The notes under the pieces: generated by a model
Database searches by the model: none
What the model saw: the letters and a program-made list of their open reading frames with translations, nothing else
What the model was told of the DNA's origin: nothing
Translations under genes and position numbers: made by a program
Shown here: positions 1 to 27,319 of the stretch, piece after piece
Position numbering within the stretch: the first letter of the stretch is position 1
How the letters are laid out: each line of letters opens with the position of its first letter
Assembly (NCBI GenBank): GCA_020631245.1
Contig: JAHDHP010000017.1
Coordinates: forward strand, 1 to 27,556
Origin: Bacteroidota bacterium
GTDB lineage: Bacteria > Bacteroidota > Bacteroidia > Chitinophagales > UBA2359
DNA length: 27,556 bases
Direction: 5' to 3'

Positions 1-56
1 CGTAGCTTCACAATGCTTCTGTTTCGTCAAGCTATCGCTACTATCCCTCACGCGAG
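1..56 (-). repeat. Truncated copy of the ~220-bp structured intergenic element (B-element), 5' part only, cut by the window edge
   Basis: Reverse complement of 1-56 gives 'cgcgtgagggatagtag..gcttgacgaaacag..ttgtgaagc'. This matches the 5' scaffold of the copies at 9727, 13683 (rc) and 24655. Confidence 0.6.
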
Positions 57-6501: not shown

Positions 6502-8613
6502 ATGTTCCCATCACTTGCTATAGTTATTGCCATTATTGCGGCTTTTTTCATTCTGGCCCTATTTGCCATGATGGCCTCTTTCTACAAAAAAGTAATCCAA
6601 GGACAAGCCATTGTACGTACAGGAGTTGGTGGTACTAAAATCGCCTTCGAACAAGGAATTTTTGTCTTCCCTGTTATCCATCGTGCCGAACTAATGGATA
6701 TATCCCTCAAAAAAGTAGAAATTGAACGTTTAGGAAAAGATGGACTTATTTGTATGGATAATCTTCGTGCAGATATTAAAGTAGTATTCTTTGTTCGAGT
6801 TAACCGTTCGGTTGAAGATGTGATTAAAGTAGCATCAACTATTGGTTGTGAGCGTTCTTCTAGCCCCGAAACATTAGTCAATCTCTTTGAAGCGAAGTTT
6901 TCAGAGGCATTGAAAACAGTTGGTAAACAGTTTGAATTTGTGGAGTTATATAACTCTAGAGAACGATTCAAACAGGAAATCCTAAATGTAATTGGTCGTG
7001 ACCTCAACGGATACATCCTTGATGATGCAGCTATTGATTACCTAGAGCAAACTCCTATTGAGCATTTGAAAGATAATAATATTTTAGATGCACAGGGGAT
7101 CAAAAAAATTGCAGAACTAACTGCTATTGAAAAAATCAAAGCGAACCAAATTCGTAGAGATGAAGAAAAAACAATTAGAAAGCAGGATGTAGAAGCACGA
7201 GAAGCGATTCTAGAACTAGAGCGACAATTGGCGGAAAAAGAAGAAATTCAAAAACGTGAAATTGCAAATATCGAATCGCGCGAACATGCAGAAATAGCAA
7301 AAGTTGCCGAAGAGGAAAGACTCAAATCAGAGCGGGCACGAATTGCTACTCAAGAGGAAATAGAAATAGCAGAAGAAAATAAACAACGACAAGTTATACT
7401 GGCTCTTAAACAAAAAGAACGTATCCAGGCTATCGAAACAGAGAAGGTGGAAAAAGATCGTTTACTAGAAGTAACAGAGCGAGAGAAAGTAGTAGAGCTT
7501 GCCAATATCGAGAAAGAAAAAGCACTCGAAGAAGAGCGCAAACAAATACAAGATGTTATTCGGGAGCGTATCGTTGTTGAAAAGACAGTAGTAGAAGAAG
7601 AAGAGAAAATCAAAGATACCAAAGCACTGGCTACAGCAGAACGTAATAAGCAAGTAGCTATCAAGCAAGCCGAGCAAATGGCACAAGAGGATTTAGTTAC
7701 TCGTACTAAAGCCGCTGAAGCCGATAAGATTGCTGCTGAAATGAAAGCCAAACAAATACTAATTGATGCAGAAGCTGCAAAACAAGCTGCTCTCAAAAAT
7801 GCAGAAGCTAAAAAGATTATGGCAGAAGCCAAAGCAGCTGAAGAAGCCGCAATTGGTATTTCTGAAGCGCAAGTGATCGAAGCAAAAGCCAATGCCCATG
7901 AAAGAGAAGGAACTGTAAACGCACTCATCGTCGAAAAGAAAGCCAAAGCAGACGCAATAGCTATTGAAGCTAAAGCCAAAGCAGAAGCTACTGGCATCGA
8001 AGCTAAAGCCAAAGCAGAGGAGCAACGCGGACTCATGGAGGCGAAAGTACTCGAAGAAAAAGGAAAAGCGGAAGCGAAAAGTATCCAAGAAAAGGCAGAG
8101 GCAATGAAACAATTAGATGGTGTTGGTAAAGAACATGAAGAGTTTAAGCTTCGCTTAGAAAAAGCCAAAGAAGTAGAATTGGCAGGTATCGACGCACAAA
8201 AAGATATTGCAGTGGTTCAAGCTGATGTAATGGCTGAAGCCTTGAAATCTACTAATATCGATATTGTTGGCGGTGAAACAATGTTCTTCGAGAATATTAT
8301 GAAAGCTGTAAGTCGCGGTAAAGCAATTGATACCATGATAGACAACAGTAAAACACTAGGCACCCTTAAGGAGCAAGTTCTCAATGGTGGTGGAAGTGAA
8401 GGAGGTGGTGATCCCATCGAAAATATAAGAAATATGATTGGACAATTTGGATTATCAACAGATGATGTAAAGAACCTAACCATCTCTGCCCTACTCCTCA
8501 AAATGAGTGGTTTGACGGATGATTCGAATATAAAAGAAAAACTGAGTAACCTCCTCAGTGCCGCTGAAAGCAGTGGACTGGCTAATACAAAGGTGAAGCA
8601 GATTGGCATATAA
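6502..8613 (+). CDS. Flotillin-like SPFH/Band-7 protein (FloT/YuaG-like) with a long Glu/Ala/Lys-rich coiled-coil
   Basis: N-terminal transmembrane segment plus SPFH block 'IVRTGVGGTKIAFEQGIFVFPVIHRAELMDISL'. ~350 aa of EA-rich repeats follow. C-terminal 'IDIVGGETMFFENIMKAV' tail. 703 aa. Confidence 0.9.
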   Translation: MFPSLAIVIAIIAAFFILALFAMMASFYKKVIQGQAIVRTGVGGTKIAFEQGIFVFPVIHRAELMDISLKKVEIERLGKDGLICMDNLRADIKVVFFVRVNRSVEDVIKVASTIGCERSSSPETLVNLFEAKFSEALKTVGKQFEFVELYNSRERFKQEILNVIGRDLNGYILDDAAIDYLEQTPIEHLKDNNILDAQGIKKIAELTAIEKIKANQIRRDEEKTIRKQDVEAREAILELERQLAEKEEIQKREIANIESREHAEIAKVAEEERLKSERARIATQEEIEIAEENKQRQVILALKQKERIQAIETEKVEKDRLLEVTEREKVVELANIEKEKALEEERKQIQDVIRERIVVEKTVVEEEEKIKDTKALATAERNKQVAIKQAEQMAQEDLVTRTKAAEADKIAAEMKAKQILIDAEAAKQAALKNAEAKKIMAEAKAAEEAAIGISEAQVIEAKANAHEREGTVNALIVEKKAKADAIAIEAKAKAEATGIEAKAKAEEQRGLMEAKVLEEKGKAEAKSIQEKAEAMKQLDGVGKEHEEFKLRLEKAKEVELAGIDAQKDIAVVQADVMAEALKSTNIDIVGGETMFFENIMKAVSRGKAIDTMIDNSKTLGTLKEQVLNGGGSEGGGDPIENIRNMIGQFGLSTDDVKNLTISALLLKMSGLTDDSNIKEKLSNLLSAAESSGLANTKVKQIGI

Positions 8614-9726: not shown

Positions 9727-9950
9727 TGAGTGAGGGATAGTAGTGGTAGCTTGACGAAACAGCCGCTTTGTGAAGTAATGACTAGCAGGGCTGACAGCGG
9801 AAGACACTGCTAGGCATATACTGAACTAGCGGATGTGAGACAACTACAAACGAATAGCCCGACCTGTATAAAAAAAGTGTGATTTTATGCCCCCAGCGAA
9901 GACGCTGGCGGGAACATGAAATCACACTTTTTTTATACAGGGCACTCCCA
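9727..9950 (+). repeat. B-element copy (structured intergenic repeat: conserved scaffold plus variable hairpin)
   Basis: 'gtgagggatagtagtggtagcttgacgaaa..ctagcagggctgac..gacactgctag..acaaacgaatagcccgacc'. A 22-bp perfect hairpin follows ('ctgtataaaaaaagtgtgattt' / 'aaatcacactttttttatacag'). Ends with 'gggcactccca'. Confidence 0.75.
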
Positions 9951-11631: not shown

Positions 11632-13662
11632 TTAAAGGATAATCACTCCAGGTAACTTCTCTTGTAAGTTTGCTATTTCAAACCCCTTTCTTCGATCTAG
11701 CAAACCACCTACATTAATGCGTTTTAAGTTAGGCAATTGACTTATTACCTCTGGTAACTCACTAAAGCTAGTATGCTTTATATCTAAATAAGTGAGGTTT
11801 TCCAATTGAGCAAAATCAGCAGGTAATGAGGAAATCCAAGTAAATCCAAGATATAATTGTTGTAGGTTTTTGAGACGCCCAATTCCTTCGGGCATAGAAC
11901 GAAACTCATGATGACTAAGTATTAAACATTCTATATCTTCTAATTCATAGATGATAGTCGGAAATTCTTTTAGAGACATATATTGCAGGTTCAAGCGTTT
12001 TTGGTTGTAAAGAGGACTCAAGATTTCCATCTTTTTTTCCTTCGACACCTCTTTGCTTTCCAACAAAATATCCGCACAACGATTATAACGCTTATACACT
12101 ACCTCCGCTATTTTCCAAGCTGGGATACCACTTGTTCGTGCGTTATCATCCATTTTTCGACGCAGAAAGTAAGCCATTTTATTAGGCTCAAATTTTTTAT
12201 GCTTCAACTTCATCGCTGACTGCATCTTTTCATCTCCATACAACTTTAACAACTTCTTGGCTTCTGCTCGATTAGTCCGACTTGTTCCAATCAAATAATT
12301 GATATACACTAATGGAATGAGTTCTTTGGGCAATCCTCCTCCTCGCATCATTTGTAAAGCAATTCCCACATTATCATCATCACCCGTTTTCATTAAGGTC
12401 TCAATCTGTTCGATGAAACCATTCTCCTCGACTGTCGCATCCAATAAATAGGCATCTTCTACTTCATTAAAGTAGCTCTGTAATTCTACATCTGTTACAA
12501 AAACAATCCCCTCTTTGCCCAATCCTTCTACATACTTACTATGCTTTCCAAGCAATACATGGGTGGTATTTTTAGTCACCTTCGACCCTAATTTTGCTTG
12601 TAAGCCTTCTAGTTTTTCTTTGATTTCTTTGCGGGTAAAAATAGCCCGACCAAACATTGCCAACTCGTCACCTGCCTGAATAGGCCGGTCTTTTAACGAA
12701 GGACTTTTTAAATACTTCTTTGCATTTTTAAAAGCACGTTCACTATTCATGGGCAAAATAGCCGCTATTTCTGCTCGCGAATAAGTCGTTAACAAATCTT
12801 CTTTTGCCCCCTCATATACTTCGTAAATCGGATATCGCATTTCTTTGGGAACCTTCTTCTTACCTAGAAATTCCAACAAATCATTAAAGTCTCTTTCTGT
12901 TATCCCTGCTGGAAGAATATTCGCTCCTACAGAAACTCGTGATAATTTTGGAAAATAAAGTAAGCTTTTCTGAAAGCCTTCTATTCGATTTCTAAAAATG
13001 CTTAAAAATTCAAGGGCTTCTAGTTGGGTCAAAAAATCAGGTATAGTAGTCAATTGATTCGCTCCAATAACCAAATCTCTCAAAGCACTACATTTACTCA
13101 ATTCTGCTGGCAATTCTGTTAGCTCCATACGTCCTGCGTATAATTGCTCCAATTTGGTCAATTGACCTATTTTGGGGGAAAGAACCTTGATTGGGTTTTG
13201 AGGAATACGTAAAAAAACTAGATTTTCTAAATCGAATAACTCATCGGGTAATTCGGTTAACAGGTTGTTGCCAAGTATTAGGTGCTTTAAGCTTTTACAT
13301 TTTCCAATTTCAGGTGGAATAACAGTCAATTGGTTACCACTTATATCCAAGTACTCTAACTGTGTTAAATTACCAATACTTGCAGGTATTTCTTTGATCT
13401 TATTACTAGAAACATTCAAACGTTTTAGCGACGGGAAATCACCTAAGTTACTAGGAAGTGCTTCCAGCTTATTGTTGTTGTAATTAATATACTCTAGCTT
13501 CGTTAACTGCACCAACTCTGCTGGAAATTCGCTCATCGCATTGTAAGCAAAATTCAATGACTCCAAATTCACACATTCCAATATATTTTTAGGAAAATGT
13601 TTTCGATTGGTACTTTGTTTATATATAGCTTTTATCTCTTTAGGATCTTCGTTTAATTTCAT
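11632..13662 (-). CDS. LRR protein paralog 1. N- and C-terminal leucine-rich repeats flank a central BRCT-like / 'GGGLP' module.
   Basis: 676 aa. Repeats of the form 'LxxLxLxxNxLxxLPxxIGxL'. Central 'KNTTHVLLGKHSKYVEGLG' (BRCT-like) and 'ALQMMRGGGLPKELIPLVYINYL'. Shares its architecture with the ORFs at 22350-24623 and 24878-27319. Confidence 0.85.
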   Translation of the reverse strand: MKLNEDPKEIKAIYKQSTNRKHFPKNILECVNLESLNFAYNAMSEFPAELVQLTKLEYINYNNNKLEALPSNLGDFPSLKRLNVSSNKIKEIPASIGNLTQLEYLDISGNQLTVIPPEIGKCKSLKHLILGNNLLTELPDELFDLENLVFLRIPQNPIKVLSPKIGQLTKLEQLYAGRMELTELPAELSKCSALRDLVIGANQLTTIPDFLTQLEALEFLSIFRNRIEGFQKSLLYFPKLSRVSVGANILPAGITERDFNDLLEFLGKKKVPKEMRYPIYEVYEGAKEDLLTTYSRAEIAAILPMNSERAFKNAKKYLKSPSLKDRPIQAGDELAMFGRAIFTRKEIKEKLEGLQAKLGSKVTKNTTHVLLGKHSKYVEGLGKEGIVFVTDVELQSYFNEVEDAYLLDATVEENGFIEQIETLMKTGDDDNVGIALQMMRGGGLPKELIPLVYINYLIGTSRTNRAEAKKLLKLYGDEKMQSAMKLKHKKFEPNKMAYFLRRKMDDNARTSGIPAWKIAEVVYKRYNRCADILLESKEVSKEKKMEILSPLYNQKRLNLQYMSLKEFPTIIYELEDIECLILSHHEFRSMPEGIGRLKNLQQLYLGFTWISSLPADFAQLENLTYLDIKHTSFSELPEVISQLPNLKRINVGGLLDRRKGFEIANLQEKLPGVIIL

Positions 13663-14272: not shown

Positions 14273-14694
14273 AGACAATGATAGTACAAATAAGATCTAT
14301 CTTATCTCTAAGAAAATCTGTGGTTAATCAATTCTTTTTGAAGAAAAATAATTCCTTTTTTTTGTACATTCGGGAACTATAATTACCTTTAGTGCTGTTA
14401 TATAAACGTGGCTGTTCACAAATACCTACACAATACCATTCCAACAGGTATTATTTTTGTGTTAACAGTGTTAATTAACCATTTTTTATTTCCCTATCAA
14501 TTTCACCAACTTCCTTTTTTTATGATGACTAGGATCAGGTAATATTATTTTTTACAAGCATTTTGCCATATTTCCCAAATATGTTGCAAAGAAAGAAAAG
14601 TTTATCTATTTCCTAATTATCAAACTCTACAAAGATTATCTAACCTAAAGATACTCTTTTAGGAATCCTTTGTTTGGCAGAAATCTACTAATCC

Positions 14695-17600
14695 ATGCAG
14701 TTAATACAAGAAGTCCATTTGCATTTCCAAGATGCAAAGTCTGATAAGGTTTACGAAGTATATTTATACGAAGTAGGCAACGACCAATATCTCGTCAACT
14801 TCAAATACGGACGTCGAGGAGCCAATTTAAAAGAAGGCACCAAAACGGATCAACCTGTAAACCGAGCAAAGGCAGATAGTATATTTGAGAAGTTAGTAAG
14901 TTCCAAAACAAAGAAAGGTTATCAACAAGTACAAACTAATACTACTTCCTCCACTCCTCCCCCTCCAAGTTCCAATTGGGATCGTGAAGCTGCCACACAT
15001 GTCTTATTAACTTATCTTCAAGAAGCAATTAATAATCCAACGTCAAAGCCTTCTGAGCCAAAGAAAGACACTACTAATTCAAACAATAATAATCGTAATA
15101 AACCGCAGTCAGTTTGGGGAGCAATTACCAAATGGATAAAAGGGGAAGATACGACAAACAATAATCCTACTAGTAGTGCCACAAATGATGATACACCTCG
15201 TCAGCGACCAATAAGTCGAATTGTATGGCGTGTTGGAGAATTGCGTATAAAAGAAGCAACTCCACTCCTACTTCAGCTTCCTATTACCGACAAAATAATC
15301 GATCAATATAGCCTTGTTTGGGCATTGGGACGATGTGGTGATCCGAGTGCGATCCCTACTTTAGAAAATATGTTATCTGCTAAAGATGGGATTCCAGCCG
15401 TTCAACTATTGGCTGCCGAAGCCAAAATGGCTTTACTCGATAAAGCGGGGCAAAAATCTTGGAGTGAAGTGCTATTCAAAGCCCTTCCTATTGCCTTCCA
15501 AAATCATATACAAACTGAAAATATTGGAGGATTAATCAACTCCATCAATGAGCAAATAGAAGATAAAAAAGAAGCCTATCAACTCATTGCACATCTCTAC
15601 CTTATTTCTAACCATTATACAACTGCCAAACAAGCTGTTCATCAATGGGTGCAGGCTGCTCCTTTCAAAGGAAGTGGTTATTTCAAAAGTATTCGACAAT
15701 TATATAAAACAGCAGAATTCCGAGATGATGCAGCTTTATGGGGCTTGATAGTTCATCGTGTCTACACTTCTCGCGCTCCTTTCTACATCACTACTTGGAG
15801 TTATTACTATCGTAATGATGGTAAGATTCACTGTAACTCCGTGTTTTTCCCGAATGAAAATAGCAAGCGCAAAGGCTATGACAAGGATTACAACTATGTG
15901 CGTGGTGATTATATTCGAACTTTAGATGAGGTAAAAAAACCCAATTCACGGCTTGGCTTTTCGGAAGGAAGCAAAAAATATATTCAAAAACGAAGCTGGC
16001 GTGTTATCAAACGTCAAGCAGAAGCTGGAGAAGCAATGACCTATGTAAAAATGGCGGTTGGCTTTTTACTTGCCTTCACTGATGAGGACAAACAAGACAT
16101 TCCTCCTTTCGAATTTTATCGTTACAAACGCGTAGATGGTCGCTGGCGAAGTATTCGAGAATTGATCCACTACCCACCCTATGCTAACTATAGCACCTTT
16201 AATCATATTCTATATAGCAATAGCCCTCGTTTCGAATACCGAAACAATAATAATTGGGTGTATAAAAAAGAGGTGAGTAAAGATACGCCAGCTCCTACTA
16301 CTCGTGAAGAAGCTTACCCGCATTTCTGGGATGAAATACCACAAGGCATCCTTCACCTATTAGCAGAAAGCAACTGTGAAGCAGTCAATGAATTTGCTGT
16401 AAAAGCAGCAAAAGCGAATCTTAATAAGATAACTCCTCTCATCAATGTAGCATTTATCAAATTGCTACTCAATAAAAAATACAAGGATACTGCCTTATTG
16501 AGCATTGAACTAGCCAAAGCAATTTATGACCCATCTAATCCAGATACAGAGCTTATTTTAGCTCTCTTGAATGCAGTTGTACCAGAAGCGCGAAATTTAG
16601 GACTAGAGTGGTTACGCGTACAAAAAGATTTTTATTTCCAAGATGCTGATTTTGTAACGGCTTGTGTATTCAATCCTCATAAAGATATTCAAGAGGAATT
16701 AGACAACTTGCTAGGTAATCATACCTTTAGTGATGATCTAAATACTGCTATTGTTGCCAAAGTAACCGCTCGTTTATTGGCTTATCCTGCCGAAGTTACC
16801 GACGAAGATCGAAAAGCGATATTACAGGCAGCCGAATACCTCAATAAACACTTTACAGCTACACTTCAGCAAACGAGTATACAAACCATTCAGGATTTCT
16901 TGGACCACCCTGTTTCTGAGGTCAAAGTTTTTGGAGCCAAAATATTACTCAATCACCCTACTGATATAAAAGACTTACCTGAACAAACCATTGCTTCATT
17001 GATTAATGGGGAGTCAGCAGAAATGCGAGCAGTAGGAACACAATTACTAGGAAAACTTCCAAAAGAAGAATTACTAAAGAAGCAAGAATTACTAAAAGAA
17101 CTGTGTTTATCACCTCATCCAGAGGTACGTCAAAGCATCCAAAAAGTCATTGCCGAATTAGCCAATGAAAACAAGGAGTTTGGAGATAGTTTTACCCAAC
17201 AAATTGTTCCTCAATTATTGAAGCGAGAAGAACACGAAGGACGTGATACAGATATAAGTACCCTATTAAAAGATCATTTGAGTGCGCATCTACCTACCAT
17301 TCCTTTGCGTATGATTCTCAAATTGATTTACTCGCCTCGCCAAGCTGCCAATCAAATGGGTGGATATTTACTGGTCAGCCATGTTAAAGAACCTGACCTG
17401 AAAATGCGACAAATTGTACGCTTGGCAAATCATGAAATGCAGGAAATACGCGATTGGGTAAAAGCAGCTTACAATAATAATATTCCACGAGTTAAATACG
17501 AACTCAAAGAATCGATTCGCTTAGTGGATGCCAAATGGGATGATAGTCGTGAGTTCGCTTTCAACTATTTCCGTCAACAACTGAGCAAAGAAGATTGGAC

Positions 17601-18075
17601 GCCAGATATTTTGGTGAGTATTTGTGATAGTGTCAATGTACCTGTACAGCAATTTGGGAAAGAAATGATTACTCGCTTTTTTGAAGAGAAAAACGGCGAA
17701 CAATATCTCCTTCAGCTTAGTCAACATCCTACTGCTGATCTCCAAAGCTTTGCCACCAATTACTTGGATCGTTTCGCCTCTGATAATCCAGAAAATATCG
17801 TCAAACTAGAATTATATTTCGTTACTGTACTATCTGGTGTTAATAAGTCAAGAGTGGCTAAAAAACGCATCTTCGAATTCTTGAGAAAAGAGGGTTTGAA
17901 GAGTGAAGAAACAGCTAAACTGGTAGCGGGAATCCTAAAAAGACAATCAGCTACTATGGCAATTGGAGATAAGGCAAAGTGTATCAGTATTATGCGTGAT
18001 TTAGATGCCATTTATCCGAATTTAGAGTTGCCAATAAAGGTAAAAGAAGTAGCAGATTTCCCAATAAATACGTAA
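14695..18075 (+). CDS. WGR-domain protein with an S/T/N/P-rich linker, HEAT-like repeats and a long C-terminal region (MolR / DUF4132-like architecture)
   Basis: N-terminal WGR signature 'KVYEVYLYEVGNDQYLVNFKYGRRGANLKEGTK..KGYQQV'. Low-complexity segment at ~aa 80-180. PBS-lyase/HEAT-like 'WALGRCGDPSAIPTLENML'. 1126 aa, ATG start. Confidence 0.85.
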   Translation: MQLIQEVHLHFQDAKSDKVYEVYLYEVGNDQYLVNFKYGRRGANLKEGTKTDQPVNRAKADSIFEKLVSSKTKKGYQQVQTNTTSSTPPPPSSNWDREAATHVLLTYLQEAINNPTSKPSEPKKDTTNSNNNNRNKPQSVWGAITKWIKGEDTTNNNPTSSATNDDTPRQRPISRIVWRVGELRIKEATPLLLQLPITDKIIDQYSLVWALGRCGDPSAIPTLENMLSAKDGIPAVQLLAAEAKMALLDKAGQKSWSEVLFKALPIAFQNHIQTENIGGLINSINEQIEDKKEAYQLIAHLYLISNHYTTAKQAVHQWVQAAPFKGSGYFKSIRQLYKTAEFRDDAALWGLIVHRVYTSRAPFYITTWSYYYRNDGKIHCNSVFFPNENSKRKGYDKDYNYVRGDYIRTLDEVKKPNSRLGFSEGSKKYIQKRSWRVIKRQAEAGEAMTYVKMAVGFLLAFTDEDKQDIPPFEFYRYKRVDGRWRSIRELIHYPPYANYSTFNHILYSNSPRFEYRNNNNWVYKKEVSKDTPAPTTREEAYPHFWDEIPQGILHLLAESNCEAVNEFAVKAAKANLNKITPLINVAFIKLLLNKKYKDTALLSIELAKAIYDPSNPDTELILALLNAVVPEARNLGLEWLRVQKDFYFQDADFVTACVFNPHKDIQEELDNLLGNHTFSDDLNTAIVAKVTARLLAYPAEVTDEDRKAILQAAEYLNKHFTATLQQTSIQTIQDFLDHPVSEVKVFGAKILLNHPTDIKDLPEQTIASLINGESAEMRAVGTQLLGKLPKEELLKKQELLKELCLSPHPEVRQSIQKVIAELANENKEFGDSFTQQIVPQLLKREEHEGRDTDISTLLKDHLSAHLPTIPLRMILKLIYSPRQAANQMGGYLLVSHVKEPDLKMRQIVRLANHEMQEIRDWVKAAYNNNIPRVKYELKESIRLVDAKWDDSREFAFNYFRQQLSKEDWTPDILVSICDSVNVPVQQFGKEMITRFFEEKNGEQYLLQLSQHPTADLQSFATNYLDRFASDNPENIVKLELYFVTVLSGVNKSRVAKKRIFEFLRKEGLKSEETAKLVAGILKRQSATMAIGDKAKCISIMRDLDAIYPNLELPIKVKEVADFPINT

Positions 18076-18163: not shown

Positions 18164-19804
18164 ATGTTATTCAATTACAAATATAGTGGAAGTACTTCAG
18201 TAGAGAGCAATAGTAGCTCTACCAATATGTCTTTCGCACCAGATACGCTTCGAGAACCCACCTTTTTTCGAGGTACACTAGCCAAAAACATTCCCTTTCG
18301 GGAAGCTATCTCTGCGCTTCATGATGTAGTAGTATCTGACCTACGTTGGAAACCCAAAGATCGCGAGGAATATAAAGCTTGGGCAGCACAACAAGAACAA
18401 CTATACCTAGAAACGATACAGTCTCAAAAAAGTGCTAATGAGGAAAAAATTAAGGAAGTACGTGCCAAGTTAAATGTCTTAAATGACCAGTCAAATGCCA
18501 TCATGGCTCCTTATTATACTGCACGACGAAAGTACTTCGACTATATCTACAAAAAAGATCGTGACGCTTGGTTTGTACTAGATCCAGTCATTACTGTACA
18601 CCCTGACGAAATCTTTTACGAGTGTTTTAGCCAAGATGAATCCACTTATGGACGCTTGGGTTGTAGCTATGAGGTCTTTAAAAATATCAACGAATTTGAG
18701 TGCGGTACTACGAATATCGACTACTCGGATGCCCTATACAAAGAATTTCAAAAAATACGCGACTACAAAGAAACTGACTTTGTTGTTGACCCAAGTGGCT
18801 TTGAAGTAACCACTGAAAACGAAGACACTTACAAAGAGCTAAAGATTGACCTCCCAGATAGTTGGGTACGTGGCTTCTTACAAGTAAGCTCAGCCATGAC
18901 ACTCGACACTACTGAGTTTAATCTACATCCTCTCGATGTCTACAATTTCTTATTCATTCTCAAACGTTTCAAAGAGAAAAAAGGACCTCGTTCCATTCGC
19001 TTCAAATTGAAACCAGGAGCACCTATCAAAGCTGTGTTTGAGCCGTGGAATTATGAAATAGTTTGTGATCGTAGTATTTACCCAGGAAACGAAGAGAAAG
19101 AAATCCGCATTTGGGGACGCCGTCGCCTACTAATTTTGGAACGTCTTATTCCTGTAACCAAAACCTTCAAAGTACGCCTTTTAGGAACAGGACTCCCCTC
19201 TTTCTTTATCGCTGATTTAGGAAATATGTCCTTTACATTAGGTTTATCGGGCTGGACTAAAAACGACTGGTCACGAGCAGGCAATTTCGACTTGATGGCT
19301 CCACGTGCCGAAGTCGATTTATTCACCAAGAACAAAGTCTTCCAATCACTCAAAGAAGACTGGCGCATGTCGGCAGATGATTTGTCGAAGAAAATGAAAC
19401 TCGACAAAGCCATCATTACAGGTGCATTATCTGCCTACACACAAGCAGGAAGTGTTATGTACGATATGAACAAAGACATGTATCGAGTACGAGAGCTAAG
19501 TCGTGAGCCACTACCTTTTGAGAAGCTTCGTTTTTCGAATGAGCGTGAACAACTTGCCAACGAATACCTCAAAGATGAGGCAGTAAAAGTGGAAGTAGAA
19601 TATCCAGGTGATGGCGTGAAAAAACTGAAAGGAGTGGTTGAAAGTCGCTCCAATCGAAAGAAATTTAATACCGAATTGGTGATTGATGGCGACCAGCGTT
19701 TGGTCAAAGCCAACTGCAATTGCCGATTCATACAAAAAAACAAATTGTTTAAAGGTCCTTGTGAGCATATTCTAGCCACCCGCTTAAAAAGCAATCAAGG
19801 ATAA
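18164..19804 (+). CDS. SWIM zinc-finger protein (YehQ-like)
   Basis: C-terminal CxC-x(n)-CxH signature 'CNCRFIQKNKLFKGPCEHILATRL'. 546 aa. Its stop codon lies about 10 bp before the first unit of the repeat array. Confidence 0.8.
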   Translation: MLFNYKYSGSTSVESNSSSTNMSFAPDTLREPTFFRGTLAKNIPFREAISALHDVVVSDLRWKPKDREEYKAWAAQQEQLYLETIQSQKSANEEKIKEVRAKLNVLNDQSNAIMAPYYTARRKYFDYIYKKDRDAWFVLDPVITVHPDEIFYECFSQDESTYGRLGCSYEVFKNINEFECGTTNIDYSDALYKEFQKIRDYKETDFVVDPSGFEVTTENEDTYKELKIDLPDSWVRGFLQVSSAMTLDTTEFNLHPLDVYNFLFILKRFKEKKGPRSIRFKLKPGAPIKAVFEPWNYEIVCDRSIYPGNEEKEIRIWGRRRLLILERLIPVTKTFKVRLLGTGLPSFFIADLGNMSFTLGLSGWTKNDWSRAGNFDLMAPRAEVDLFTKNKVFQSLKEDWRMSADDLSKKMKLDKAIITGALSAYTQAGSVMYDMNKDMYRVRELSREPLPFEKLRFSNEREQLANEYLKDEAVKVEVEYPGDGVKKLKGVVESRSNRKKFNTELVIDGDQRLVKANCNCRFIQKNKLFKGPCEHILATRLKSNQG

Positions 19805-19814
19805 ACAAACGAAA

Positions 19815-20001
19815 GAGCTTGCAATCTATGGGCGGTGTATCACCGCTTTTGTTGACAATCTTAGCATACACCACTAGCCGTCTCTTTAAGATGCGATCTA
19901 GCACTACTATCGGGTTTTCTGGCTCGATTTCATAAATCAAAACCCGATAGTAGTGCGAGATCGCTTGGAGTTGAGTCATCTAGTACCGAGCTTCATCGAA
20001 G
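19815..20001 (+). ncRNA. Array unit 1 (putative retron ncRNA). Unique hairpin at 19893-19974.
   Basis: 26-bp stem 'gcgatctagcactactatcgggtttt' / 'aaaacccgatagtagtgcgagatcgc' with one mismatch. 20-nt loop 'ctggctcgatttcataaatc'. Confidence 0.6.
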
Positions 20002-20055
20002 CCTTTTCGTTTCATTCTTTATTTCGTTATTTGACATTTTTAAAACCATACGCAC

Positions 20056-20242
20056 GAGCTTGCAATCTATGGGCGGTGTTTCGCCGTTTTTGTTGACAAT
20101 CTTAGCATACACCACTAGCTACCTCTTTAAGTTGCGTACTATCAGATATATTCGGTTTTCTGTTTGGCTTTCGTCAAGCTAAACCGAATATATCTAATCG
20201 TCCGCTTGGAGTTGAGTCATCTAGTACCGAGCTTCATCGAAG
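20056..20242 (+). ncRNA. Array unit 2. Unique hairpin at 20134-20205.
   Basis: Basal 'gcg/cgc', then an interior loop. 15-bp perfect stem 'agatatattcggttt' / 'aaaccgaatatatct'. Loop 'tctgtttggctttcgtcaagct'. Confidence 0.6.
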
Positions 20243-20276
20243 TACACGCGTATGGTTCTCGTAATTTACACCTACT

Positions 20277-20465
20277 GAGCTTGCAATCTTTGGGTAGTGT
20301 TTCGCTACTCTTGTATACAATCTTAGCATACACCACTGGCCACCTCTTTAAGGTGCGAGACAATGCAAGATGGTGCAGTTTTCGGCATGTCTTTCGTAAA
20401 GAAAAACTGCACCATCTTACAGTCTCGCTTGGAGTTGAGTCGTCCAGTTCTGAGCTTCATCGAAG
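20277..20465 (+). ncRNA. Array unit 3. Unique hairpin at 20355-20427.
   Basis: 'gcgagac' / 'gtctcgc' basal stem, then an interior loop. 16-bp stem 'aagatggtgcagtttt' / 'aaaactgcaccatctt'. Loop 'cggcatgtctttcgtaaagaa'. Confidence 0.6.
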
Positions 20466-20508
20466 TAAACAGGTGTAAATTACTTATTCAACTATTTCAC
20501 ACAAGAAA

Positions 20509-20696
20509 GAGCTTGCAATCTTTGGGCGGTGTATCACCGCTTTTGCTGACAATCTTAGCACACATCACTGACTGCCTCTTTAAGTTGCGTGATAGACAAC
20601 TATGTCGGAATTCCTGTTCGGTTTTCGTAAACCGATTTCCGACATAGTTATCATCCCGCTTGGAGTTGAGCCATCCAGTACCGAGCTTCATCGAAG
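20509..20696 (+). ncRNA. Array unit 4. Unique hairpin at 20587-20659.
   Basis: Basal 'gcg/cgc', then an interior loop. 14-bp stem 'aactatgtcggaa' / 'ttccgacatagtt'. Loop 'ttcctgttcggttttcgtaaaccgat' with the nested mini-hairpin cggttt/aaaccg. Confidence 0.6.
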
Positions 20697-20759
20697 TACA
20701 CTTGTTGTGAATAGTTGATTTTTTAACACCACTTTTTCTCATTAAAAAATTGTTTTATT

Positions 20760-22283
20760 TTGTCTCAACCCAAAACTCGACAAGAACTATACGAACAAAT
20801 TCGTCAAACATCTAAGGCAGAGTTTATTTTATCAGAAATGATTCGACTTGGATTTTGGGAGGAAGGAGATGGGCAACCTTCTCTTCCTACTGCATTCATT
20901 AAAGAACGTGCTGATTTACACCGTGAACTCAGCAAGTTGATGTCTACTGCGCGAAAGCTGGACAATCCAGACCAAGTGCTAAAAGAGTATCGTCAAAAAC
21001 GCCTTAAAGAGTCGAACGAAAAACAACAGGAAAATCGAGAAAGACGAGAAAAAGAACGCTTAGAACGAGCCGAAAAATGGAAGGAGCGAAAAAGTAAAGA
21101 GATTGTTTACTTAGGTGAAGAAATTTCAGGTGGATTAAATGAAACCGACGCGAATGAAGAACAACTCAAGCGTTTTGGTTTACCCAACTTTGAAAACGCT
21201 GCGATTTTAGCGGAAGCAATGGGAATTGATTTGGGGAAATTGCGCTTTTTGGCTTACAACCGTAAAGTGAGTAAGGTATCGCACTACAAACGCTTTTACA
21301 TGGCTAAAAAGTCGGGAGGCAAACGACTCATTTCTGCTCCGATGCCACAGCTCAAAGGTGCCCAATATTGGGTATTAGAAAACATTCTAAACAAAGTCAA
21401 TATTCACGAAGGGGCGCATGGTTTCCGTCAAGGGCATTCGATTGTCTCTAATGCTCAAAATCACGTCGGACAGGATGTAGTGATTAACTTCGATTTCAAA
21501 GATTTTTTTCCCACTATTACTTTTAAGCGGGTAAAAGGCTGTTTTGTCAACTTGGGCTATTCGGAGCAAATCGCAACCATCTTTGCAGCCCTTTGCACCG
21601 AACCCGATGTAGATGAGGTCGAAATGGATGGACATACTTATTATGTCGCTAAAGGACCGCGTCACCTTCCACAAGGCGCGCCTACCAGTCCTGCATTGAC
21701 CAATATAATTTGCTATAAACTTGATGCACGCATGGCGGGTATGTGCAAAGTGCTAGGTTTTAATTATTCGCGTTATGCGGATGATATGAGTTTTTCTGCT
21801 TCAGGTGATGCGGTTAAAGATGTGGGACGACTCATTTGGTCGGTTCATCAAACTGCCGAATCGGAAGGCTTTATGATTCATCCTGATAAAACGCGGGTGA
21901 TGCGCAAAAACCAACAGCAAGAGGTGACTGGCATTGTCGTGAATGAGCAATTGGGGATTGATCGGAAGGAGTTGAAAAAATTTCGAGCTTTATTACACCA
22001 AATTCGCCAAACAGGTATGGCTGGTAAGACCTGGGGGGCTGGTAAGGATTTGGCTGCTTCTATCTGGGGTTATGCTAATTTTGTGGCGATGGTCAAACCT
22101 GAAAAGGGGGCAAAATTGGTCGCTGAAGTGAAGCAAATTTTAGGTAAACAAACGCCTAGTAAGCCTGCTGGTTCGTCGGAAGGAGAAAAAGATTTGGCTC
22201 GTAAAATTGCAGCGGAGAAGGAACGATTAGAGCAAAAGAAGAAGGAGGAAGATGATAAAAAAGATAATTGGAAAATGTGGTAA
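20760..22283 (+). CDS. Retron-type reverse transcriptase with a ~160-aa N-terminal coiled-coil extension and a ~100-aa K/E-rich C-terminal extension
   Basis: RT motifs 'KRLISAPMPQLKGAQYWVLENIL', 'FRQGHSIVSNAQNHVGQDVVINFDFKDFFPTI' (NAxxH), 'LPQGAPTSPALTNI', 'YSRYADDMSFS' (YADD) and 'QEVTGIVVNEQLGI' (VTG). The ORF begins at a TTG at 20760. The first in-frame ATG is at 20838. Confidence 0.85.
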   Translation: MSQPKTRQELYEQIRQTSKAEFILSEMIRLGFWEEGDGQPSLPTAFIKERADLHRELSKLMSTARKLDNPDQVLKEYRQKRLKESNEKQQENRERREKERLERAEKWKERKSKEIVYLGEEISGGLNETDANEEQLKRFGLPNFENAAILAEAMGIDLGKLRFLAYNRKVSKVSHYKRFYMAKKSGGKRLISAPMPQLKGAQYWVLENILNKVNIHEGAHGFRQGHSIVSNAQNHVGQDVVINFDFKDFFPTITFKRVKGCFVNLGYSEQIATIFAALCTEPDVDEVEMDGHTYYVAKGPRHLPQGAPTSPALTNIICYKLDARMAGMCKVLGFNYSRYADDMSFSASGDAVKDVGRLIWSVHQTAESEGFMIHPDKTRVMRKNQQQEVTGIVVNEQLGIDRKELKKFRALLHQIRQTGMAGKTWGAGKDLAASIWGYANFVAMVKPEKGAKLVAEVKQILGKQTPSKPAGSSEGEKDLARKIAAEKERLEQKKKEEDDKKDNWKMW

Positions 22284-22340
22284 ACACGGAGTGCACAGAG
22301 AGGGGAACACGGAGCGCACAGAGAGGGGAACACGGAGCGC
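22284..22340. repeat. Short tandem repeat of ~22 bp, about 2.6 copies ('acacggagcgcacagagaggggaac')
   Basis: 'aacacggagtgcacagagaggggaacacggagcgcacagagaggggaacacggagcgca' lies between the RT stop and the convergent LRR gene stop. Confidence 0.6.
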
Positions 22341-22349
22341 ATGAACGGG

Positions 22350-24623
22350 CTATAAGTCCCAGCCATACTCTTCTTGAAATCGTTGATTGTTTTTAAGTTC
22401 TCTTTGAAAAACTTTATGATAATGATGGTAGCAGAAATAGAATATCGGTAAGTGATCTATTTCTGCTTCTTTTGTTTGTAGCTTTATTTTTCTATTATTA
22501 TCTATCTCATCTAAGTTAGGATTGAAAAGTTGATGTTTTCTAGCCATTACCTTCCTTATTTTTTCGGAACCATATAAACGCAATAAATTGGCGGCTGCCT
22601 GTTTATTGGTTTTGTCTTCAGCCAATTTATAAATTGCTAGTAATAGTGGTACTATTTTTTTGGGTACTCCTCCCCCTTCCAGCATTCCTAGACCTATAGC
22701 TACATTTTCTGCTTCTGGATTTACTAATAAATTAATGAGCATTGATAAATCTACCATTTCATCTTCCGCAAGGAGGAAAGGGGTTTCATGTTGATGGAGA
22801 AATTGAAGGAACTGTGGTTCTAAAAAGAAGACCAATCGTTCTTTATTTAGATCTTTGGTAATTGGTACATTTTTACCTAGTAAAACATGCGTTGTATTAT
22901 CAGTAATTTTAGTGGTGGAAGCAATATTTAAGTCTGTCAATTTTTCCCTGATTTCTTTTCTGGCGTGAACCGTCTTACCTAATATCAATACTTCTGAATT
23001 TTCTGTAAGTGGTTGTTCGGAAAAGGTGGGCGACTGTACCGCTAGATTCACAGCTGCTTTATGTTTTAATTCGGAAACGGGGAAAAATAAAGCGGGTAGT
23101 AAATCTACTCGTTTTAATTGCACAATCTGCTCCTCTTGTTCATTTAAAATGTGTAGCATATTTCGCTGTACCTGCCACGGTATTTGCTCTTTCCACTTGG
23201 AGAGAGCTTGTACGAATAAAAAGTAAGCACGTGTTAATAAAATAGGTTCTTCGAAATCAGTAATTCCTAGTCCTTTTAATTCATAATCAGGTGTAACTAT
23301 TATTTTTTTAGGAATCCATGAAGCTAAAGCAGGGTAAGTTTCTATAAGCGTAGCTAGTTTTCGAAAATAGAAAGCTCCTGTAGGAATATTTTCGAGATGT
23401 TTATTGGTGAGCGATACCGTTTTTATATGCTTGGCTAATGCTAGTGAAATGGGATAGGTTTTAAGTGGATTATCCTGAGCACAGATCATACGACACTTAG
23501 GCAGATCGCCAATGGTCTCTGGAAGCGATTCGAGTTTATTTTTACGACAATCTAAGAATTTGAGTTTAGGAAGCTGTCCTATTTCATTAGGGAGTTTATT
23601 AAACTCTCCCCAAGCCATATTTAAAGATTCTAAGCTGGTGAGTTGCCCAATACTGGAAGGAAGTGTCTCCATTTGACTATTGTTCAATTGGAGTAATTTT
23701 AGCTTCTTGAGCTTTCCAATGGTAGGTGGCAGACTTTTGAGGGGGGTAGCAGCTAATTGTAAGTTTTCGAGTTTGGGCAAGTTACCTATTTCAAGGGGTA
23801 AATCTTGGAGTGGGTTATGATTAAGATTTAAGATCTTTAGGTGGTTTAAGTTTTCAATGCTTACAGGGAGCGTTTGGAGTTGGCAATAAGCCAGTGATAA
23901 TGTATTTAAACGCATCATATCTCCTATTGATGCGGGAAGTTCAGTCAGTGGATTTTCTTGTATACTCAGTTCTTTAAGTTTGTGAAGTTTGCCAATGGTG
24001 TTGGGTAGTCTTGTGAGTTTGTTTTTATTCAAGTCTAGTAGTTCTAAGTATTGGAGATAGGCTATCTCATTAGGAAGCTCTTTAAGTTGATTGTTGGTAA
24101 GATTTAATCGCTGCAAGAGGCGCATGTTTCCTATTTCTCTGGGTAGTGTTTCTAGGTGATTACCCAGCAAATGTAAAGCGATTAACTCATGGAAATCGCT
24201 AATAGTTGTGGGAAGTGTTTTTAGATAATTGTGGGACAGATTTAATTCAAAGAGCCGTTTTAATTGTCCCATTTCGAGGGGTAGTGTTTGTAATTGGTTA
24301 TTAGACACATCGAGCAATCGGAGGTGCTTTAATTGTCCTATTTCGGGGGGTAATTGTGTTAGTTTATTCCAAGTAAGTTTGAGTACACGTAGCTTTTTAA
24401 GTTGCCCAATTTCGGGGGGTAAACTGTTGAGTTGATTGCTGCTAAGATCAAGTGTTTCAAGGTTTTTAAATTGACCAATTTCAGGTGGTAAACTGGTAAG
24501 GTGATTGTTGGACAGATTTAATTCCTGCACAGCTCCGCCTTTACCGAATATTTCGGCAGGTATTTCGGTAAGCTGTTGATGATTGAATTTGAGTTGCATG
24601 GAGGAATGAATAGAACATGCCAT
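22350..24623 (-). CDS. LRR protein paralog 2. ~350 aa of N-terminal LRRs plus a C-terminal BRCT-like / 'GGGVP' module.
   Basis: 757 aa. About 14 repeats of the form 'LxxLPPEIGQLKxLxxLxLxxNxL'. 'DNTTHVLLGKNVPITKDL' and 'GLGMLEGGGVPKKIVPLLLAIYKL' are shared with the other two paralogs. Confidence 0.85.
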   Translation of the reverse strand: MACSIHSSMQLKFNHQQLTEIPAEIFGKGGAVQELNLSNNHLTSLPPEIGQFKNLETLDLSSNQLNSLPPEIGQLKKLRVLKLTWNKLTQLPPEIGQLKHLRLLDVSNNQLQTLPLEMGQLKRLFELNLSHNYLKTLPTTISDFHELIALHLLGNHLETLPREIGNMRLLQRLNLTNNQLKELPNEIAYLQYLELLDLNKNKLTRLPNTIGKLHKLKELSIQENPLTELPASIGDMMRLNTLSLAYCQLQTLPVSIENLNHLKILNLNHNPLQDLPLEIGNLPKLENLQLAATPLKSLPPTIGKLKKLKLLQLNNSQMETLPSSIGQLTSLESLNMAWGEFNKLPNEIGQLPKLKFLDCRKNKLESLPETIGDLPKCRMICAQDNPLKTYPISLALAKHIKTVSLTNKHLENIPTGAFYFRKLATLIETYPALASWIPKKIIVTPDYELKGLGITDFEEPILLTRAYFLFVQALSKWKEQIPWQVQRNMLHILNEQEEQIVQLKRVDLLPALFFPVSELKHKAAVNLAVQSPTFSEQPLTENSEVLILGKTVHARKEIREKLTDLNIASTTKITDNTTHVLLGKNVPITKDLNKERLVFFLEPQFLQFLHQHETPFLLAEDEMVDLSMLINLLVNPEAENVAIGLGMLEGGGVPKKIVPLLLAIYKLAEDKTNKQAAANLLRLYGSEKIRKVMARKHQLFNPNLDEIDNNRKIKLQTKEAEIDHLPIFYFCYHHYHKVFQRELKNNQRFQEEYGWDL

Positions 24624-24877: not shown

Positions 24878-27319
24878 CTATGGCACAAAAATAATTTCAC
24901 AGTAGGGAATGATTTCTTGTCCTAACTGATAGAGTAATCGCTTTTGTTCTGGGTTAGTAGCTGAAAGGGTTAATTTACGTAAATTTTGCAGTTGTTGAAA
25001 GGATTCAGGGATTTCGGTGATATTATTATGAGAAATATCGAGGGTTTGGAGTTTGGTAAGTGGCGTTAATTCTTCTAAATCCCCATTATCTAGTTGAATA
25101 TCTCGTAGTATTAATTGACGTAACTGTGTTAGATTACTGAGTCCTTTGATTTGAAATTCATTATCTATTTCTGATAGTTCGAGTGATTCCAAGCCTTTGA
25201 TTTGAAATATATTATCTTGGAAACTATTGATCGCTTTTCTACCTCGCCAAACGATTTTTTTGAGGGCATTTAGCTCGGTAAAAGATGGTGGCATTTTCCA
25301 AAGACTGTTATGAATTAGTTGTAGTTCTTCTAATTGTTGAAGCTGATGTATATTCTTGGGCAAACTACCTAACATCGTTTTTTGAATAATGAGTTGGCGC
25401 AAGTTGGTCATGTTTCCGAGGGAATCTTGATCGGTTCCGCCCCAATAACAATCATTTATTTTTAAGATTTCCCAACGATTTTGTTGCCCAATAATGACAG
25501 GAAAATTGTCGAACCGCATATTATCAAGGCTCAATTCCTTGTTCACTTCGTACATAGAAAGTATCTGTAACTTACCACTGTCTTCGATATAGGTATCTTC
25601 CAACAATAAAGCGTGTATGTTGGACTTTACTCGCTCGATGAGGTGTTTGGTAAGGAGTGTTTGATCTAAATTTGTTTGTTTGGCAAGTAACTGAATCTTT
25701 TTGCCGATGGGTTCTGGATGTGGATCGTCGAGTCGCCAATTTGAATTGAGTGCGTAACTAAGTAAATAGGAGCCATTGAGTTGTAGTAATTTCCTTAAAT
25801 TTGTCCTTACTTTTCCTTTGGAAGTTTTGAAAATAACCATTAATAAGGGAAGCATTTCGGGAGGTACGCCTCCTCCTCGTAGCATTTCGATGGCTAATAA
25901 TATATTTTCATTTGTTTGATTATTAAGCAATATACTTACCTTTTTAACTAATGTTTCTCGCTCTTCATTCTCGCTCATTTTGATATATGCTTCTTCTTTT
26001 TCTTCGAGAAAAAAGAGTAATTGTTGTTCGTTGAGAAAAATTAAATTGCTGTAATTTAATGCGGGCATTTTTGTTTTGACGAACTTTCCAATGAGGACAT
26101 GGCTGGTATCTTTGTCGAAGGTATTGCTATACTTTATCTGTTGGGCTTCCAGCCGTTCTTGAATGGTTTTCTTTTTTTGTATAGTGTTTCCTAAAAAGGT
26201 AATTTTACTAGCTGACGATAGGTTTTGAGCATCAAAATGTTTACAAAGTGTTTGGACAATATTGTCTTGTACTATTTTGTGTGGGAAATGGAGGTATTCG
26301 AGTAGAAAATTGTGTGGTAATTGTTGAATATAGTCTTGGTTGTTGACAAATATTTGAAAGAGAGAATAACGAATTGAGAACGATGTATCTTGTTTTTTAA
26401 AACAGCGAATGAGCTTGTAAAATATGCGGTAATGTGGATCGGGCATAAATTTCTCATGCCCTTTTATATGCTTAATATTATTGAGTTGGAGTAACTCAAG
26501 GGGCATCTCCGTAATATTGGTTCCGCCTATTGCTAGGCTACGCAGCTTTTTTAACTTGCCAAATGTGGTAGGTAATTTTTGGATGGGATTGTTTGATAGT
26601 CCTAGTAATTTGAGTTGTTTGTAGTTGCCAATGTTTTGGGGTAATTTTTGAATTTGGTTATCATTTAGCTTTAGATTTTCGATGGTACTTTTTTGTTCAC
26701 TTCCTATTTCGGCTAAGGCAATGATTTTGTTTTTGGTAGCAACGATGGTATGCATGGAAGAATTGGATAATAAGGCAGCGGGTAAAATGCTTAATTGGTT
26801 TTCCTCTAACCATATTTCTTTTAGTTTTGGAGCGGTTCCTAGTCCTTTCTCAATTATGCTAATTGAATTGCAATTGACATTGATGATTTTGAGCTGTGGC
26901 AATTGAGATAAAATAGCAGGTAATATTTCCAGCTTATTACTTTGTATGACTAACTCCTCCAAGTTTTCACATTCTAAAATCTCTTCTCCAATATGACTTA
27001 TTTTATTAAAGCTTAGATCGAGCTTTTTGAGATATTTGAAATGTTCGATTCCTTTAGGCAAAGCCGTTAAGCGATTGTTTTGCATTTTCAAATGAGTAAG
27101 CTTGGTACAATCGCTAATACTTGGAGGAAATACTAATGTATTGGCGTCTCCGTATAAATTACGAATACTTAAGGACTCTAATTGCCTCAAATTTCCAATT
27201 TCTTTGGGTATTTCTTTGATGTCGTTATTACCCAATATTAAGGTTTTCAGCTTGGTATACTCAAATACCTCGGCAGGTATTTTATCCATTTTTTTATAGG
27301 AGAGATCGAGACGGGGCAT
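24878..27319 (-). CDS. LRR protein paralog 3. N- and C-terminal LRR blocks flank the central BRCT-like / 'GGGVP' module.
   Basis: 813 aa. 'KDTSHVLIGKFVKTKMP' and 'LAIEMLRGGGVPPEMLPLLMVIFK' are shared with the other paralogs. LRRs 'LxxLxLxxNxIxxLPxxxGxL' at both ends. Confidence 0.85.
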   Translation of the reverse strand: MPRLDLSYKKMDKIPAEVFEYTKLKTLILGNNDIKEIPKEIGNLRQLESLSIRNLYGDANTLVFPPSISDCTKLTHLKMQNNRLTALPKGIEHFKYLKKLDLSFNKISHIGEEILECENLEELVIQSNKLEILPAILSQLPQLKIINVNCNSISIIEKGLGTAPKLKEIWLEENQLSILPAALLSNSSMHTIVATKNKIIALAEIGSEQKSTIENLKLNDNQIQKLPQNIGNYKQLKLLGLSNNPIQKLPTTFGKLKKLRSLAIGGTNITEMPLELLQLNNIKHIKGHEKFMPDPHYRIFYKLIRCFKKQDTSFSIRYSLFQIFVNNQDYIQQLPHNFLLEYLHFPHKIVQDNIVQTLCKHFDAQNLSSASKITFLGNTIQKKKTIQERLEAQQIKYSNTFDKDTSHVLIGKFVKTKMPALNYSNLIFLNEQQLLFFLEEKEEAYIKMSENEERETLVKKVSILLNNQTNENILLAIEMLRGGGVPPEMLPLLMVIFKTSKGKVRTNLRKLLQLNGSYLLSYALNSNWRLDDPHPEPIGKKIQLLAKQTNLDQTLLTKHLIERVKSNIHALLLEDTYIEDSGKLQILSMYEVNKELSLDNMRFDNFPVIIGQQNRWEILKINDCYWGGTDQDSLGNMTNLRQLIIQKTMLGSLPKNIHQLQQLEELQLIHNSLWKMPPSFTELNALKKIVWRGRKAINSFQDNIFQIKGLESLELSEIDNEFQIKGLSNLTQLRQLILRDIQLDNGDLEELTPLTKLQTLDISHNNITEIPESFQQLQNLRKLTLSATNPEQKRLLYQLGQEIIPYCEIIFVP

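Follow-up and report, generated by a model that had tools for sequence, protein, structure and literature searches.

Retrons are usually treated as one reverse transcriptase (RT) with one template RNA. The retron non-coding RNA (ncRNA) as a rule holds one to three short msr hairpins and one long, stable msd stem-loop; the guanosine that primes reverse transcription lies at the 3' end of the a1 repeat, classically within nAGC, and the defining product is msDNA, a branched RNA-DNA molecule with a 2'-5' linkage. For most retron types it is not yet clear, to our knowledge, what the msDNA sequence itself does.

Type XIII retrons (RT clade 10) include the classical retrons of myxobacteria, Mx162/Retron-Mxa1, Mx65/Mxa2, Sa163/Sau1 and Ne144/Nex2 (PMC7736814). 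Mx65, which was placed in this type by Mestre et al. 2020 (PMC7736814), has GAGC as its priming context (PMC6868368). For type XIII, a solved structure, a published mechanism or a defence function was not found in the literature. Several template units served by a single RT are known from engineering: in the 'arrayed ncRNA multitrons', msr-msd units of retron Eco1 are placed one after another so that a single RT can be used for multiplex editing (PMC10370050). Natural arrays are unmentioned in that paper, in which the words natural, naturally and native are absent.

In the 27.5-kb stretch of DNA analysed here (the window), the interval between a SWIM gene and an RT gene very probably holds a tandem array of four intact type XIII retron msr-msd ncRNA genes, at 19807-20717. 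The type XIII features present are a clade 10 RT on the same strand, SWIM and WGR/HEAT accessory genes, a1/a2 repeats, an msr hairpin and a long msd stem-loop. The RT family and the accessory genes are shared with described type XIII retrons, and the units resemble type XIII ncRNA, by its published description, in their terminal inverted repeats, short msr hairpin and long msd stem-loop; the canonical architecture published for retron msr-msd RNA has the same layout (PMC7736814, PMC6868368). The difference lies in the number and individuality of the units: described type XIII members are depicted with one msr-msd per RT, whereas the window has four and its Bacteroidota clade two to seven, each window unit with its own a1/a2 repeat and msd stem cassette.

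Results

Gene context of the array

The type XIII accessory gene for a WGR/HEAT-repeat protein (14695..18075, + strand; PADLOC WGR_XIII, E = 0; Pfam WGR and HEAT_2) is followed by the SWIM zinc-finger accessory gene (18164..19804, + strand; PADLOC SWIM_XIII, E = 3.3e-235; Pfam SWIM), the four units and the RT gene (20760..22283, + strand, TTG start; PADLOC RT_XIII, E = 2.4e-194; Pfam RVT_1). The four-unit stretch (19806-20720) is flanked by the SWIM and RT genes, both on the + strand; the RT and the units lie on the same strand, and ~45 nt separate the end of unit 4 from the RT start codon. The operon order, WGR/HEAT, SWIM, array and RT, is also found in four related loci (L090 and L092-L094). 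The RT_XIII profile spans RT residues 2-500, including the N-terminal extension typical of type XIII, and the closest solved structure to the window RT is that of the Ec86 RT (E = 7.7e-44); the structure search found no solved structures for the SWIM or WGR proteins.

In the promoter and terminator scan, sigma-70-like and terminator-like sites were not above shuffle frequency. The Bacteroidota -7 motif TAnnTTTG does not occur within the array and shows no enrichment across the window; one weak match, at 14452, underlies the co-transcription proposed below.

Anatomy of the four units

The array consists of four head-to-tail units of ~235 nt each (19806-20720), all on the + strand and all matched by R1, a covariance model that we built from 19 units. 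Unit 1 (19807..20012) is closed by a1 at 19807-19820 and a2 at 19999-20012 (duplex energy -15 kcal/mol), matches R1 at 19815-20004 with 184 bits, and has its candidate priming G at 19821. In unit 2 (20044..20257), a1 at 20044-20061 and a2 at 20240-20257 form the inverted repeat aaccatacgc/gcgtatggtt (-17.4 kcal/mol); the R1 match covers 20056-20245 (175 bits), and the candidate priming G is 20062. Unit 3 (20261..20483) carries the repeat gtaatttacacct/aggtgtaaattac, with a1 at 20261-20282, a2 at 20463-20483 (-19.8 kcal/mol), the candidate priming G at 20283 and an R1 match at 20277-20468 (188 bits); its minimum free energy (MFE) fold (z = -6.0) contains the stem formed by a1 and a2 as well as both the msr and the long msd hairpins. 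Unit 4 (20489..20717) is closed by caactatttcacacaag/cttgttgtgaatagttg, with a1 at 20489-20514 and a2 at 20694-20717 (-19.2 kcal/mol); its candidate priming G is 20515, its R1 match lies at 20509-20699 (178.5 bits), and its MFE fold, also of retron shape, has z = -7.0.

The closing repeat is thus specific to each unit, and its sequences are fully diverged among the four. Its inner end is a conserved CUU/AAG helix (helix 1) that covaries across the family, and the G right after this helix, the fourth letter of CTTGC, is invariant in 84/84 homologues and likely to be the 2'-OH priming guanosine. The G of GAGC is the alternative candidate: the window units also carry this motif, the context reported for the G in Mx65 (PMC6868368), but its AGC is not conserved in relatives, unlike the G of TTGC.

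The candidate priming G is followed by an 8-bp msr hairpin (19830-19848 on the + strand in unit 1) and a conserved linker. Next come a helix in which the 3' part of msr pairs with the 3' flank of msd (the msr/msd-flank helix, or helix 3; in unit 1, 19873-19884 pairs with 19973-19984) and then the long msd hairpin. Covariation in the msr hairpin, reported in a preliminary description of this DNA, is borne out: the arms are gcggtg/caccgc in units 1 and 4 and gtagtg/cgctac in unit 3, and unit 2 has gcggtg/cgccgt, which includes wobble pairs. That description had further pointed to a 6-nt segment between accact and ctctttaag that differs in every unit. The segments do all differ (agccgt, agctac, ggccac and gactgc), but the flank in unit 4 is atcact rather than accact. 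The variable segment belongs to helix 3 and covaries with its partner strand (TAG/CTA, TGG/CCA; CAG/CTG in the related locus L001).

Scaffold identity among the four units is 86% on the 5' side and 90% on the 3' side. From the 36 family-conserved positions, defined by at least 90% conservation in 65 single-copy loci, 31-33 are kept in all four window units (31 in unit 1, 32 in unit 2), and the deviations are common to the lineage; by this measure none of the four looks decayed.

The msd hairpins

The interval first singled out for compensatory change, 19893-20659, coincides exactly with the span of the four hairpins, from the start of hairpin 1 to the end of hairpin 4. Judged from its sequence surroundings, each long hairpin flagged there is the msd template of a complete msr-msd unit. 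Hairpin 1 (19893..19964, + strand) has 30 pairs and -41.0 kcal/mol (z = -9.2) and folds as its DNA complement too; hairpins 2 (20134..20205, +; 29 pairs, -31.1 kcal/mol, z = -7.0), 3 (20355..20428, +; 29 pairs, -36.8 kcal/mol, z = -7.3) and 4 (20587..20659, +; 28 pairs, -31.5 kcal/mol, z = -6.2) follow, the z-scores of -6.2 to -9.2 being relative to shuffled sequences. The stems had been described as near-perfectly self-complementary yet almost unalike, and so they are: the 5' arms of the middle stems have pairwise identities of 24-67%, and for 5 of the 6 pairs shuffled arms match just as well, units 2 and 4 being the exception (P = 0.03 against shuffled arms).

The apex motif is retained as originally given, with tttcataaa in unit 1 (TTTCATAAA, 19928-19936, + strand) and tttcgtcaa, tttcgtaaa and tttcgtaaa in units 2, 3 and 4. 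What had been called a loop motif (TTTCGTAAA) consists largely of a short TTT/AAA stem that caps the hairpin and encloses a 3-nt loop, and a conserved TTYCNG bulge lies below this capping stem-loop. Conservation of the apex module throughout the family lends plausibility to the earlier suggestion that the apex may be a contact site for a protein or the RT.

Covariation across the family

RNAalifold folded the four window units into 56 pairs, with changes on both sides in 20; for 19 units, changes on both sides were found in 30 of 46 pairs. The RT-protein scans yielded 4 genome loci, 80 metagenome loci and 10 further contigs (of ~4,350 RT homologues), and R1 had one or more matches just ahead of the RT gene, in every case on its strand, in ~73 of 85 sources and in 9 of 10 later loci. 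By R1, a unit is ~190 nt long, usually 187-192 nt, and longer only with an insertion at the msd apex. In an 86-sequence alignment with 85 distinct homologues, which was fitted to the model and leans toward its structure (a bias that is lessened, though not removed, by a control with slid partners and by independent MFE folding, both of which argue for a real signal), 95.7% of cells are paired, versus 66% with partners shuffled and 33-43% with partners slid; changes on both sides occur in 42 of 46 pairs, and the covariation score is 0.764 versus 0.20. Instead of being lost upon the addition of homologues, covariation in this model-fitted alignment is strengthened. The fixed position and length of the hairpins in relatives also speak against recent, independent palindrome insertions. 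Family conservation, covariation and the scarcity of wobble pairs in msd described below together support the original proposal of a functional RNA or single-stranded DNA structure that is under selection and linked to the RT.

An R1 search with filters off gave no match in L002, L007, L020, L037, L040, L048 and L049; in these loci, either the upstream sequence is missing or a different RNA is used. At gathering thresholds Rfam had no match in the whole window, and Rfam 15 holds no matching family; at E values up to 10, the array region gave sub-threshold miRNA-precursor hairpin noise only. No other copies of the unit were found in the 27.5-kb window, and 12-mers from the stems have no meaningful recurrence.

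Wobble avoidance in the msd hairpin

A G.U pair in RNA becomes a C-A mismatch in cDNA, so a stem that also has to fold as DNA is expected to contain Watson-Crick pairs only. The share of G.U among cells is 16.0% in the msr hairpin and 1.0% in the msd hairpin (11.7% and 2.8% with de novo MFE folds). This scarcity in msd agrees with copying of the stem into DNA, and the predicted cDNAs form the same hairpins under DNA parameters (z = -5 to -8). In helix 3, 0% of 840 cells are G.U, which suggests that the RT may also read through the 5' strand of this helix. If helix 3 is copied, the msDNA would be ~126-135 nt long and would comprise, besides the variable hairpin, an outer helix and an 8x8 internal loop that is conserved; overall, the predicted length is roughly 110-135 nt.

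Tandem arrays in relatives

Most type XIII loci (~65 of those scanned) have one unit. In a neighbour-joining tree of the RTs, a whole Bacteroidota clade has arrays, with 2-7 units per RT. The window and L001 have four units each and L005 has three; L003, L006 and L038 have two each, as do L090, L092, L093 and L094, and L091 has at least two. Clade members with enough upstream sequence and an R1-type RNA have at least two units, except L089, which has one. Two units each are also present in L016 and L031, elsewhere in the RT tree. The largest arrays, in L085 (7 complete and 2 partial units) and L086 (6 complete and 2 partial), have an identical RT protein and are one whole unit apart. In L085, unit 6 shares its msd with unit 5 but has another msr hairpin, and it looks like a product of unequal crossing-over.

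Evolution of the stem cassettes

The RT proteins of the window and L001 are 87% identical, and only 41% of 4-fold sites match. All four window units have counterparts in L001, the last two in swapped order. The middle stem of window unit 2 is essentially unchanged in unit 2 of L001, and that of window unit 4 is identical to the stem of L001 unit 3. Window unit 3 and L001 unit 4 differ by three compensatory pair changes, and about half of the unit 1 stem is replaced relative to its counterpart. For the last two units, the two loci have entirely different a1/a2 repeats.

A similar pattern is seen among L006, L038, L091 and L092, where the RTs are 83-91% identical with a 4-fold identity of 0.27-0.47. 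Four cassette types occur there in varying combinations and positions (A+B in L006, C+D in L038, C+B in L091 and D+B in L092), and the cassettes are near-identical even where msr hairpins, helix 3 and a1/a2 differ. The units of L085 have scaffolds with 95-97% identity to one another; for their cassette arms the average is 55% (33-100%, with one identical duplicated pair). Cassette switching by strand flipping, with A resembling the reverse complement of C, was considered but found no support: 4 flipped pairs exceeded the 99th percentile versus 2.5 expected.

These patterns allow two readings. Purifying selection may act on discrete cassette sequences, with units being gained, lost and reshuffled; or the stems may simply change very slowly, through compensatory changes for which no G.U intermediate is tolerated, together with recombination between scaffolds of high similarity.

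Discussion

We propose the following mechanism for the array. The four units would be transcribed together with the operon, and each would fold by its own a1/a2 pair, with the conserved msr hairpin and linker forming the scaffold by which the RT would be expected to recognise it. The single RT would then prime at the G of every unit and copy the msd region. The outcome would be four msDNAs with a common 5' leader (CGATGAAGCTC...) and a common apical module, but with different middle stems of ~17-20 bp. The stem would pair in the RNA template and again in the DNA product, and its sequence would be free to vary between units; covariation is expected in this case because the stem must pair in both. 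On the evidence of the sequences, one enzyme probably makes several different small DNAs. That one RT could serve several units is feasible because the engineered multitron array works in this way (PMC10370050).

An alternative is that one unit only, such as that nearest the RT, works as template and that the others are duplicated relics or regulatory decoys. Indeed, a single unit suffices in most type XIII loci (~65 of those scanned), and units can decay, since L085 and L086 hold two partial, degenerate units. We consider this unlikely for the window, where 31-33 of the 36 conserved positions are kept in all four units with lineage-wide deviations, and where each unit has its own complementary a1/a2 despite full divergence. 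The four counterparts in L001, at 41% RT 4-fold identity, and the at least two units in clade members with enough upstream sequence and R1-type RNA, bar L089, likewise argue against relics. The chance that the hairpins are generic palindromes, such as REP- or MITE-like repeats, terminators or attenuators unrelated to reverse transcription, is close to nil. It is true that long, G+C-poor intergenic palindromes are common, that Rfam yields weak, generic hairpin (miRNA precursor) matches only and that the terminator scan marks two small stems in the region; but the long hairpins are without T-tails and the terminator-like sites are at shuffle level, the 190-nt scaffold is confined to the upstream side of type XIII RTs and without exception shares their strand, the 27.5-kb window holds no further copies, and G.U scarcity in the msd but not the msr stem would be unexpected of an RNA-only element.

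The alternation of a conserved scaffold with variable cassettes, the 7 versus 6 units in samples sharing an identical RT protein and the reshuffling of cassettes between arrays could also recall an adaptive system, CRISPR-like or similar to a diversity-generating retroelement (DGR), with cassettes acquired from or targeting foreign DNA. Such a system is very improbable here. The window is without cas genes, a DGR-style template/variable repeat pair or a target gene; the RT is of the retron type, and the variable part is self-complementary. An exact search with the 20-22-nt stem sequences of the four units gave 0 matches each in 2.9 million IMG/VR viral contigs, and a blastn comparison of the array with 50,697 phage genomes produced a single 30-nt chance match (E = 1). 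Moreover, the cassettes persist across lineages with near-saturated synonymous sites, the opposite of rapid spacer turnover. A CRISPR array was accordingly rejected on the lack of cas domains in the window, the self-complementary variable parts and the lack of viral or phage matches, and a DGR because the RT scores as type XIII rather than DGR and the units are non-coding; the differences between units are compensatory stem changes and are not adenine-specific. The likeness to CRISPR arrays (alternating conserved and variable segments, gain and loss of units, reshuffling) is therefore an analogy only: the arrays described here have no cas genes and no protospacer-like matches, their palindromic stem lies inside a 190-nt structured unit, and their cassettes are conserved over long divergence.

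With four templates for one RT as the preferred reading, the hairpins themselves are ordinary type XIII msd stems, and their covariation is what that kind of element predicts. What appears to be new is that such units occur naturally in tandem, each with closing repeats of its own and with cassettes that have diversified, an arrangement that we have not found described. No report of natural retron ncRNA arrays was found in the literature, including the main retron surveys; only engineered arrays came to light. A bioRxiv preprint of September 2026 (10.64898/2026.09.22.753630), in which 'ncRNA array' occurs 10 times, 'DRT' 18 times, 'retron' 2 times and 'msd', 'WGR', 'SWIM' and 'type XIII' 0 times, probably deals with DRT systems but might overlap.

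The arrays may represent a natural repertoire of msDNA 'specificities', with the double-stranded middle stem as a sequence-specific determinant, a possibility that we put forward tentatively and hold to be the less probable outcome. In this case the stem may serve as a decoy or sensor for phage DNA-binding or DNA-modifying proteins, or for a transposase-like SWIM effector, and lineages may keep, lose and reshuffle discrete cassette types. Pointers in this direction are the cassettes that are almost unchanged at an RT 4-fold identity of 36-47% with a1/a2 flanks diverged or replaced, the cassette combinations A+B, C+B, C+D and D+B, and the contrast between scaffolds and cassettes in L085. A natural lineage with one RT and 2-7 templates, whose differences are nearly confined to the closing repeats and a short double-stranded cassette, offers a direct experimental handle on the job of the msDNA stem.

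The arrays are also design material for multiplexed retron editing. Like the multitrons (PMC10370050), they have head-to-tail msr-msd units, a different msd in each and a single RT; the multitrons are synthetic and built on a type II-A retron, whereas the natural arrays have differing a1/a2. Because these pairs differ in sequence, a unit should pair within itself more readily than with other units of the same transcript. Across 15 units from other arrays, a1 and a2 are again unique complementary flanks, with RNAduplex energies of -10 to -43 kcal/mol.

Helix 3 and variation among the msr-msd units

Helix 3, the pairing of the 3′ part of the msr with the 3′ flank of the msd, lies at 19873-19884 with 19973-19984 in unit 1 of the window, and in alignment A5 its share of G.U pairs is 0% over 840 cells, below even that of the msd hairpin. 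This absence of G.U suggests that helix 3 is also part of the predicted DNA product.

Among the units of loci with related RTs, one of 216 nt (L085:233-448) and one of 240 nt (L031:2678-2917) exceed the usual ~190 nt. In both, the extra length consists of insertions in the apex, the stem-loop capping the msd hairpin; therefore, the apex tolerates added sequence. A 13-mer of the unit 2 apex in the window, TTTCGTCAAGCTA, recurs twice elsewhere in the window in opposite orientations, at 22-34 (+) and 9747-9759 (-), and this may be due to chance.

The variable middle stem of the msd hairpin, the cassette, carries a CACTAC/GTAGTG core in 4 of ~22 distinct types, on either arm: in unit 1 of the window, in L038 unit 1/L091 unit 1, in L038 unit 2/L092 unit 1 and in L093 unit 2/L094 unit 2. 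With a significance of ~0.04, itself a rough post-hoc estimate, this recurrence in the sequences is only suggestive.

Array size also varies. L085 and L086, from two samples, encode an identical RT protein, yet have 7 and 6 complete units, respectively, besides two partial units in each (compared over L085:233-2937 and L086:505-2937). Units 5 and 6 of L085 share one msd and differ in the msr hairpin, and unit 6 seems to have arisen by unequal crossing-over.

Loci with other candidate RNAs

A second structured element, a long imperfect hairpin of ~450 nt (z = -6.2), precedes the RT, with the array or the contig start on its other side (L085:1900-2400 and L002:1-330). Its 3′ end is ACGAAG, like that of an msr-msd unit, and it has the 12-mer CTACTATCGGGT in common with the stem of unit 1 in the window; R1, the covariance model of the msr-msd RNA, did not detect it in these two regions. 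L087 may belong to this type as well. In the RT subclade of L020, L022, L037, L040, L048 and L049, which adjoins L016 and L031 in the RT tree, no R1-type RNA was found within 3.5 kb upstream, even with filters off, and L040 has different direct repeats in its place (1938-2769). These six loci may use another ncRNA.

Surroundings of the retron operon

Three large leucine-rich-repeat proteins flank the operon, all on the (-) strand (11632-13662, 22350-24623 and 24878-27319); two of the three also contain a BRCT domain, and none matches a PADLOC model. Tandem repeats lie within ORFs 5788-6459 (30 bp, at 5926-5986) and 6502-8613 (33 bp, at 7939-8018), neither of which has a Pfam match. A further 23-bp tandem repeat, AACACGGAGCGCACAGAGAGGGG (22283-22341; 2.6 copies, 97% matches), begins at the RT stop codon and lies in the gap ahead of the convergent leucine-rich-repeat gene.
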